This document shows positions 6,052 through 6,361 of a stretch of DNA of 64,000 nt, piece after piece. The position numbers and the translations under genes were made by a program. This DNA is from an uncultured Candidatus Saccharibacteria bacterium (GTDB lineage: Bacteria; Patescibacteriota; Doudnabacteria; UBA920; VMFF01), in assembly GCA_964364285.1 (NCBI GenBank), contig CAYIKZ010000001.1:17237-81236 (forward strand). The letters are read 5' to 3'. The stretch's first letter is position 1, and each line of letters begins with the position of its first letter. The notes below the pieces were generated by a model. The model was not told where the DNA came from. It saw nothing but the letters and a program-made list of their open reading frames with translations, and made no database searches.

Positions 6052-6065
6052 TTCGTTTCTTCTCA

Positions 6066-6275
6066 TCACGTCACCGAATGCGGTGGCGCTGGTTTGTCCG
6101 GCGCTTGTTCAGGCACTGACCGGCCGTTCGGGTAGATCTTGATCGGGGTCAAGAAATGCATAAAGACCCAGAACAACACCACGAACAGCAGTGCCGGTTT
6201 CCAGAGAAAGTGAATGAGCGGGAGAAAGAAGGTTTCCTTTTCCAGCTCCGGCACCTTATCGGCGTCGTGAGACAT
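6066..6275 (-). CDS. hypothetical small single-TM protein (69 aa) encoded in GC-rich island B
   Basis: ATG at 6275..6273 is preceded by GGAGGA with a 5-nt spacer. The protein MSHDADKVPELEKETFFLPLIHFLWKPALLFVVLFWVFMHF... has one hydrophobic helix. CDS GC is about 58% against a host of about 38%. Confidence 0.6.
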   Translation of the reverse strand: MSHDADKVPELEKETFFLPLIHFLWKPALLFVVLFWVFMHFLTPIKIYPNGRSVPEQAPDKPAPPHSVT

Positions 6276-6302
6276 CTGTATCCTCCGTGGGTATTTGAGC
6301 GC

Positions 6303-6331
6303 ATTATCTAAAAATGTGGGGCTTTTGTCAA
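6303..6331 (-). promoter_or_regulatory. consensus sigma70-like promoter driving the island B gene
   Basis: The reverse strand reads TTGACA-17 bp-GATAAT, about 25 nt upstream of the ribosome-binding site. Confidence 0.6.
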
Positions 6332-6361
6332 TTTGCAGGGAATAGCTCTTAGGCATAGAAT

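Follow-up and report, generated by a model that had tools for sequence, protein, structure and literature searches.

Single accessory genes that carry their own promoter and terminator and lie between conserved genes are known from phages as morons (Juhala/Hendrix). Replacement-type flexible genomic islets are hypervariable spots between core genes, the content of which is swapped by recombination in the flanks. Horizontal gene transfer and genomic islands are reported to be common in groundwater Patescibacteria (PMC12455944). The locus described here is a small chromosomal GC-rich island (island B) next to fusA in a Candidatus Doudnabacteria bacterium (Patescibacteria/CPR) from groundwater, and it is best read, with a probability of roughly 0.72, as a self-contained accessory transcription unit for a bitopic envelope peptide, of foreign origin and vertically inherited since. 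The gene is new as a protein family and ordinary in kind.

The window, by which is meant the whole stretch of 64,000 nucleotides that was analysed, has 38% GC, against 53-57% GC in island B. Its genes run from tRNA-Leu through parB, an M50 peptidase gene, rpsL, rpsG and fusA to the gene for the 69-aa protein, followed by genes for a 112-aa protein that is weakly Phd/YefM-like, a 690-aa and a 70-aa protein, tuf, rpsJ and the ribosomal protein operons. Near-identical DNA is present in MAGs and contigs from the Hainich groundwater wells H41 and H32 and in an NCBI MAG contig, which is 100% identical across its 1,109 bp, and species-level relatives bear the label Candidatus Doudnabacteria. An earlier note on this DNA had described an ORF, a promoter, a GGAGGA site with a 5-nt spacer and a hairpin, and every one of these features was found in place (Table 1). 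Its placing of the gene between fusA and tuf holds on the side of fusA, which the gene adjoins, but three more genes (6362-6700, 6754-8826 and 8830-9042) intervene before tuf. To call it an unexpected occupant of the str operon was an overstatement, as the operon ends at the fusA terminator and the spot is variable in 30 of 30 species. From this terminator, together with the promoter-like sites of the downstream genes, it follows that the str operon in Doudnabacteria ends after fusA and that the 69-aa gene sits behind the operon and not inside it; it is an ordinary accessory gene, not a new component of the translation operon.

Table 1. Coordinates of the features at and around island B, numbered from the first letter of the window.
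Feature	Position	Strand	Remarks
fusA (EF-G)	3880..5997	+	left border of the variable slot; stop codon 5995-5997
Predicted bidirectional intrinsic terminator hairpin	6014..6054	both	common to fusA (+) and the 69-aa gene (-)
CDS of the 69-aa single-pass membrane protein	6066..6275	-	ATG 6275-6273, TGA 6068-6066, 69 codons
Short 5' leader	6276..6296	-	Shine-Dalgarno GGAGGA (6281-6286), 5 nt to ATG
Sigma-70-type promoter, TTGACA-17 nt-GATAAT	6303..6331	-	TTGACA 6331-6326, GATAAT 6308-6303
Promoter-like TTTGCA-18 nt-TAGAAT	6332..6361	+	9/12 match; back-to-back with the -35 box of the 69-aa gene
112-aa protein gene, weak Phd/YefM-like N-terminal domain	6362..6700	+	right border of the slot

The signals around the gene are conserved across the genus. 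Seven genus-level sequences keep both promoter hexamers (eight if the near-identical L037 is included), and in none of them does either hexamer or the 17-nt spacing differ. The sequence of the spacer varies, as would be expected for a functional promoter. Promoters with at most one mismatch number four in 64 kb, against 0.72 expected, and the other three precede rpsL, the S10 operon and another GC-rich island. Transcription would start near 6296; on the minus strand, GGAGGA (6286-6281) begins after 16 nt from GATAAT. The heptamer GGAGGAT is kept in all orthologues of the 69-aa gene and also precedes an alternative gene, of 208 codons, that fills the same place in other species. A near-consensus promoter and a Shine-Dalgarno site of the gene's own, as claimed earlier, are thus both present in the sequence.

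As had also been claimed, the gene is convergent on fusA and the two have a bidirectional terminator in common. The core of the hairpin, AGAGCCGACA/TGTCGGCTCT at 6017-6026/6042-6051, lies ~17 nt past the fusA stop codon. That both genes end in this hairpin was correct, but the 10 bp given for it was too short, as the stem has 14 outer pairs and a further 3-4 inside. Folding energies are ~-31 kcal/mol for the plus and -34 for the minus strand (z ~-6 to -7 against shuffled sequences), T-rich runs lie 3' of the hairpin on each strand, and every relative keeps it, those with an empty slot included. In one relative (L017, 4432-4472) the inner stem-loop is the reverse complement of that at window 6014-6054 (GACGC..GCGCT vs AGCGC..GCGTC) and the outer 10-bp stem is identical, as if the loop had been inverted between the two palindromic arms.

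On the other side of the gene, an 18-mer across both -35 boxes is invariant throughout the genus, and the TTTGCA-18-TAGAAT site is likely to be the promoter of the 112-aa Phd/YefM-like gene. The TAGAAT box ends at 6361, no Shine-Dalgarno site stands before the 112-aa gene, and distant homologues of its product align from residue 3 onward only, which together suggest a leaderless mRNA starting at ATG 6368. The Phd/YefM-like match of this product (E = 2.7e-4) lies under Pfam's cut-off. The gene adjoins fusA regardless of slot content, and does so in 30 Doudnabacteria species genomes (loci L037-L070); genes for a ~690-aa coiled-coil protein and a 70-aa protein, and then tuf, come after it in the window genome and in the closest relatives. 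Within the 690-aa gene, a GC-rich patch (8001-8250, ~0.52) is a hot spot of divergence from the 97.8%-identical L001, with 22 differences in 250 bp and 0-10 in neighbouring bins. Near the start of the window, tRNA-Leu(CAA) (127-213) is overlapped by the listed ORF 100-1182; the real parB start must lie downstream, and a relative's annotation has 316 aa.

Evidence that the 69-aa reading frame is a coding one comes from its relatives. When 1.84 billion representatives were searched exhaustively with phmmer, two more proteins were found, with identities of 47% and 45% (the second orthologue 42% in the trimmed alignment A2). Both are encoded on short contigs (L004 and L005), where their genes fill the same slot, bounded by the Phd-like gene and the fusA end, and carriers of the gene, namely the window with the near-identical L037, L004 and L005, make up three independent lineages. 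The ORF interior is 57-63% DNA-identical across the three, the reading frame stays open, and one 3-nt in-frame indel is present. Between the window and the two orthologues pS is 0.60-0.67 and pN 0.29-0.35 (Nei-Gojobori), and nonsynonymous changes are fewer than synonymous ones with Fisher p = 1.4-1.5e-4, a value that comes from three independent sequences only. In addition, the pattern GC3 > GC1 > GC2 agrees with the 69-aa frame. The earlier note had envisaged that the ORF might not be conserved in any relative; orthologues exist and are under purifying selection, and by this comparative evidence the 69-codon ORF is judged to be a real protein-coding gene. Its product is predicted to be a single-pass membrane protein, as that note had it.

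Constraint on the gene is nevertheless weak, as shown by its repeated loss and by an omega of ~0.3-0.5, against 0.07 for the adjacent Phd-like gene. Since dS of the Phd-like gene is also high (~0.7-1.7), the appearance of a hypervariable ORF interior between conserved flanks simply reflects constraint on the flanks: besides a core gene and another conserved gene, these contain the terminator, the Shine-Dalgarno site and the pair of back-to-back promoters. An ORF interior made hypervariable by diversifying selection or by a diversity-generating retroelement was considered and rejected because omega is below 1 and the neighbour's dS is also high.

The GenBank model of the gene has 96 aa and a start at 6356. 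This start is probably wrong, and the 69-aa start is supported, because the extension overlaps the promoter region and, in L004, is interrupted by a stop at codon 3 and does not share the reading frame. For annotation, this means that the 96-aa model swallows the gene's own promoter and that the 69-aa protein would be the real product.

In the 69-aa protein (SVPEQAPDKPAPPHSVT is an example peptide), an acidic N-terminus is followed by a predicted TM helix, at about residues 18-42 (Kyte-Doolittle maximum 2.08 over 19 residues), and a Pro-rich tail. AlphaFold2 predicts one helix, residues 11-41, with disordered ends and a pLDDT of 87-89 in the core. The tail holds the conserved motif I-K/R-I/V-Y-P-N-x-x-x-V-P-E-x-x-x-D-x-P-x-P, and a second conserved cluster, K26-P27, stands at the start of the hydrophobic core. 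The protein is probably inserted without a signal peptide. By the positive-inside rule, an N-in/C-out topology with the Pro-rich tail outside is weakly favoured; the N-terminal flank is richer in K + R in L005 (6 vs 2) and roughly equal to the other flank in the other orthologues, and this unlike charge balance makes the topology call a weak one.

The search of small-protein families proposed earlier gave no match in Pfam; NCBIfam, PHROGs, PADLOC and PDB chains gave none either, the best PDB match (E = 0.3) being at chance level. No relatives were found in phage records, plasmid records or viral contigs (IMG/VR), and a word-seeded single-sequence search found the protein itself only. A profile search retrieved the same three clusters among 5.8 billion proteins, all from the fusA slot.

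The content of this slot was compared among relatives gathered by a metagenome scan with the 18-mer across the -35 boxes and from GTDB species genomes containing the neighbouring protein. The scan yielded 31 loci, of which L008, L017 and L025 alone are true relatives, the rest being chance matches. Genus-level relatives are 90-95% DNA-identical in the 3' region of fusA, and their slots occur in three states, the empty one in two forms. The 69-aa gene is present in the window/L037, L004 and L005. A GC-rich 208-aa gene, with the same GGAGGAT site and the same 3' flank, takes its place in L017, L040/L072 and L075. In L008 and L039 the slot is empty with the promoter kept, GATAATGCGG being joined to the terminator. 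In L038 it is empty and the -10 box is lost, by a deletion from the -35 box to the terminator; its junction falls within GACAAAA, a repeat found on both sides of the gene in the sister lineage L005.

In the two empty slots that keep their promoter (L008, 3329-3420; L039, ~9868-10000), an intact TTGACA-17-GATAAT stands ~12 nt from the terminator hairpin; between these two the flanks differ by 7% and the spacer differs, with the hexamers intact. The promoter of an empty slot may have a role of its own, for example through a short hairpin RNA antisense to the 3' end of fusA or as architecture for the divergent promoter.

In a neighbour-joining tree of the flanking genes, the 69-aa carriers and L038 form one clade, and the 208-aa carriers fall into two others, one of which also contains L008 and L039. 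The simplest history is that the 208-aa gene is ancestral, was replaced once by the 69-aa gene, and that two independent deletions followed. Frequent swapping of cassettes, or capture of the integron type, was rejected, as the tree fits one replacement and two deletions. Within the genus the 69-aa gene is dispensable, being deleted or replaced in other species.

Across 30 Doudnabacteria species the gap between fusA and the Phd-like gene measures 93-2125 bp and holds unrelated small ORFs, several of them hydrophobic. In L069, L062, L055, L063 and L049 these are unrelated minus-strand ORFs with Shine-Dalgarno sites. Several of the ORFs in distant gaps encode small hydrophobic proteins (64, 51, 122 and 75 aa) and others small Cys-rich or soluble ones; one family is common to L060 and L068, and two are common to L064 and L065. 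Even the most conserved neighbourhood of a streamlined CPR genome thus has a spot where small orphan genes come, change and go.

The composition of the gene differs from that of its host. GC1/2/3 are 0.57/0.36/0.71, with a GC3 of ~0.30 in host genes, and GC3 of the orthologues is lower (0.61 and 0.56). With the window's translation genes as reference, the CAI of 0.30 is the lowest measured in the window, where ordinary genes have 0.58-0.75 and fusA and tuf 0.75. The earlier description of a GC-rich island is upheld in that the composition is foreign to the host genome, whereas the description of the gene as strongly expressed relied solely on consensus signals and is not borne out by the worst codon adaptation in the window. 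Outgroup-polarised substitutions in the two slot genes comprise 57 GC>AT and 31 AT>GC changes (binomial estimate p ~0.007), and GC3, CAI and this bias together point to a foreign gene drifting towards host composition. Selection upholding the GC-richness was rejected, the net GC>AT flow being that of amelioration. The slot genes are thus taken to be imports of high GC content, or at any rate to descend from GC-rich ancestors, and to be ameliorating towards the host. The exhaustive phmmer search gave only the two slot orthologues and no donor lineage, so that horizontal origin of the 69-aa gene rests on composition. If the donor of such GC-rich orphan genes were identified, it could point to the host of Doudnabacteria or to their mobile elements.

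Taken as an accessory unit, island B would function as follows. The near-consensus sigma-70 promoter, back-to-back with that of the Phd-like gene, would read towards fusA and yield an mRNA of ~290 nt from ~6296, with a ~20-nt leader and the GGAGGA ribosome-binding site. The transcript would stop at the bidirectional hairpin that also ends fusA; sharing of this hairpin gives the two mRNAs complementary 3' ends, which could, as a speculation, couple the processing of both. Translation is likely to be of modest efficiency, in view of the poor codon adaptation. The product would be bitopic, its single TM helix preceded by a short acidic N-terminus and followed by a conserved Pro-rich tail of ~27 residues, and is presumably a non-essential envelope peptide that acts via its exposed YPNG...PVPE...D.P.P tail or via a membrane-protein partner; an accessory envelope peptide with an outward tail is the best guess. 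The gene would have entered the slot at the base of one sub-clade, displacing the unrelated GC-rich 208-aa gene, and would since have been inherited vertically under relaxed purifying selection, its GC-rich foreign composition decaying towards that of the AT-rich host, with at least one sister lineage losing it by deletion between short direct repeats. Outward-facing small membrane proteins could plausibly contribute to the episymbiotic life of CPR bacteria.

Four further GC-rich orphan islands occur in the 64-kb window, making five with island B, and two of the five have near-consensus promoters. Island A (2337-2772, 62% GC, ORF 2415-2717 on the minus strand) separates the M50 peptidase gene from rpsL. 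Its ORF, antisense to the genes on either side, specifies an orphan protein of 100 aa and is followed by a GC-rich hairpin at 2370-2391. Of its 27 differences from L001, 17 are at third codon positions of the minus-strand frame, so that it is taken to be a real gene. A counterpart of the same size (GC 0.62-0.66) occupies the same position in L037, L039, L040, L017 and L008, and the protein has no match in any family library. The islands at 36219-36934, 39192-39705 and 60680-61506 hold orphan ORFs of 196, 136 and 216 aa (CAI 0.38-0.39, GC3 0.59-0.62), with no match in Pfam, PHROG, NCBIfam or PADLOC and, for the 196-aa and 216-aa proteins, no viral relatives. Island C ends in a 15-bp hairpin (36880-36914), and island E has a TTGACA-17-TATGAT promoter (60591-60619) and a 16-bp terminator (61413-61448). 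Islands A-E look like a class of foreign, self-contained single-gene units.

A bolder extension of the accessory-unit reading is that the promoter-terminator pair behind fusA is a standing expression slot into which GC-rich orphan genes for membrane-anchored proteins exposed at the surface are repeatedly installed and from which they are discarded, as part of a genome-wide class drawn from an unsampled GC-rich pool and serving host attachment or phage exclusion. This is unlikely as a whole. If it were true, the source of the genes would be such a pool, for example the host of the episymbiont or a mobile element.

Other readings of the gene fare less well. It is rather improbable that the product resembles a type I toxin, damaging the membrane when made and kept silent by antisense RNA from read-through or 3'-overlapping fusA transcripts. 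In favour of this, the protein is small, hydrophobic and predicted to cross the membrane once, and its gene has strong promoter and Shine-Dalgarno signals and is convergent with a highly expressed gene with which it has complementary 3' ends. The mRNA body is also somewhat more structured than shuffled controls (z = -3.0), and poor codon adaptation would hold the dosage of the protein down. However, no promoter-like plus-strand site for an antisense RNA was found within 6060-6300, the only overlap being the shared terminator, no toxin family was matched, the gene is single-copy, and the alternative occupant of the slot is an anchored beta-rich protein and not another toxin. Type I toxins usually have fewer than 60 aa, against 69 aa here with one TM helix and a conserved hydrophilic Pro-rich tail of ~27 aa; with this length and this tail, which is probably extracytoplasmic, the protein is unlike Hok, Fst, TisB or Ibs peptides.

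Still less probable is that the 69-aa gene is a truncated, fast-diverged remnant of the 208-aa gene, having kept the TM anchor and linker and lost the beta domain. The 208-aa protein is N-terminally anchored, beta-rich and Cys-containing, its family is likewise restricted to the fusA slot, and its AlphaFold2 model is poor (pLDDT 43.6). The two genes have the slot, promoter, GGAGGAT context and 3' flank in common, their products have the same layout of a short N-terminus, a TM helix and then a Pro-rich segment, and hhalign sets the TM helices and juxtamembrane stretches of both together. This alignment is, however, not significant (probability 0.2%, E = 0.34), BLASTP gives no alignment between the proteins, DNA local alignments are no better than shuffled sequence, and the same is true of the tails (p = 0.04-0.62 over 9 pairs). 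Truncation was rejected on these grounds, as neither protein nor DNA similarity rises above that of shuffled sequence, and the 208-aa protein is regarded as unrelated.

It is very improbable that the ORF is incidental and that an RNA, structured or antisense, or convergent transcription itself, modulates the 3' end of fusA or the Phd-like promoter. GC-rich islands in AT-rich genomes are often RNA genes, and island B is GC-rich like structured RNAs in such genomes and folds with z ~-3 on each strand; the promoter is intact in the empty slots of L008 and L039, where it would fire straight into the terminator. Against this, nonsynonymous changes are significantly rarer than synonymous ones, the indel preserves the frame, and the -10 box is gone in L038. 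Folding the three orthologues together gives only a weak consensus (-37 kcal/mol vs -82 for the single sequence, covariation term -1.4). Rfam gave no match in the island at gathering thresholds, and chance-level ones only by E-value, and ARAGORN found no RNA gene there; with the weak consensus fold, these results led to the rejection of a hidden RNA gene. A spurious ORF or an assembly artefact is scarcely credible, for although the family is very narrow (three clusters) and the gene dispensable in relatives, the locus is found in NCBI, ENA and JGI assemblies, the ORF is open at ~40% DNA divergence with omega significantly below 1, and promoter, Shine-Dalgarno site and terminator are all kept.

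The accessory-unit reading of island B can be set beside several described systems. At the level of the protein, the small single-pass proteins AcrZ, MgtS, CydX and KdpF likewise have fewer than 70 aa and one TM helix and are easily missed or mis-annotated. The 69-aa protein differs from these, and from Hok, Fst and TisB, in showing no sequence similarity to them and in its conserved Pro-rich tail; its gene shares no operon with genes for a partner complex, and no antisense RNA partner was found. As to mobile elements, the genes called in the ~8 kb to each side include no integrase, no attC site was found, no flanking repeats exceed the chance level, and the hairpin remains in the empty sites, so that it belongs to the slot and not to a cassette of the integron type. 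Neither a transposase nor a target-site duplication was found at the slot; there is only a 9-nt inverted repeat, at chance level (~0.6 expected), together with the 6-7-nt GACAAA(A) direct repeats, which explain the deletions of the slot.

Flexible genomic islets have in common with island B their conserved flanks (here fusA and the Phd-like gene), a variable, species-specific content of atypical composition, and recurrent loss. No integrase, tRNA or repeat boundaries were found at island B, and it is unlike such islets in being tiny, with one gene of ~235 bp, and in its history of one replacement and two deletions. Phage morons agree with island B in consisting of one ORF with its own sigma-70 promoter and intrinsic terminator, of atypical composition, between two conserved genes, and in being dispensable and present, absent or replaced in close relatives. 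Unlike a moron, island B lies in a bacterial chromosome by core translation genes (rpsL, rpsG, fusA and tuf) and not in a prophage, and its promoter and terminator belong to the slot and remain after the gene is lost. The 69-aa gene resembles a chromosomal counterpart of a moron, or a flexible islet of one gene.
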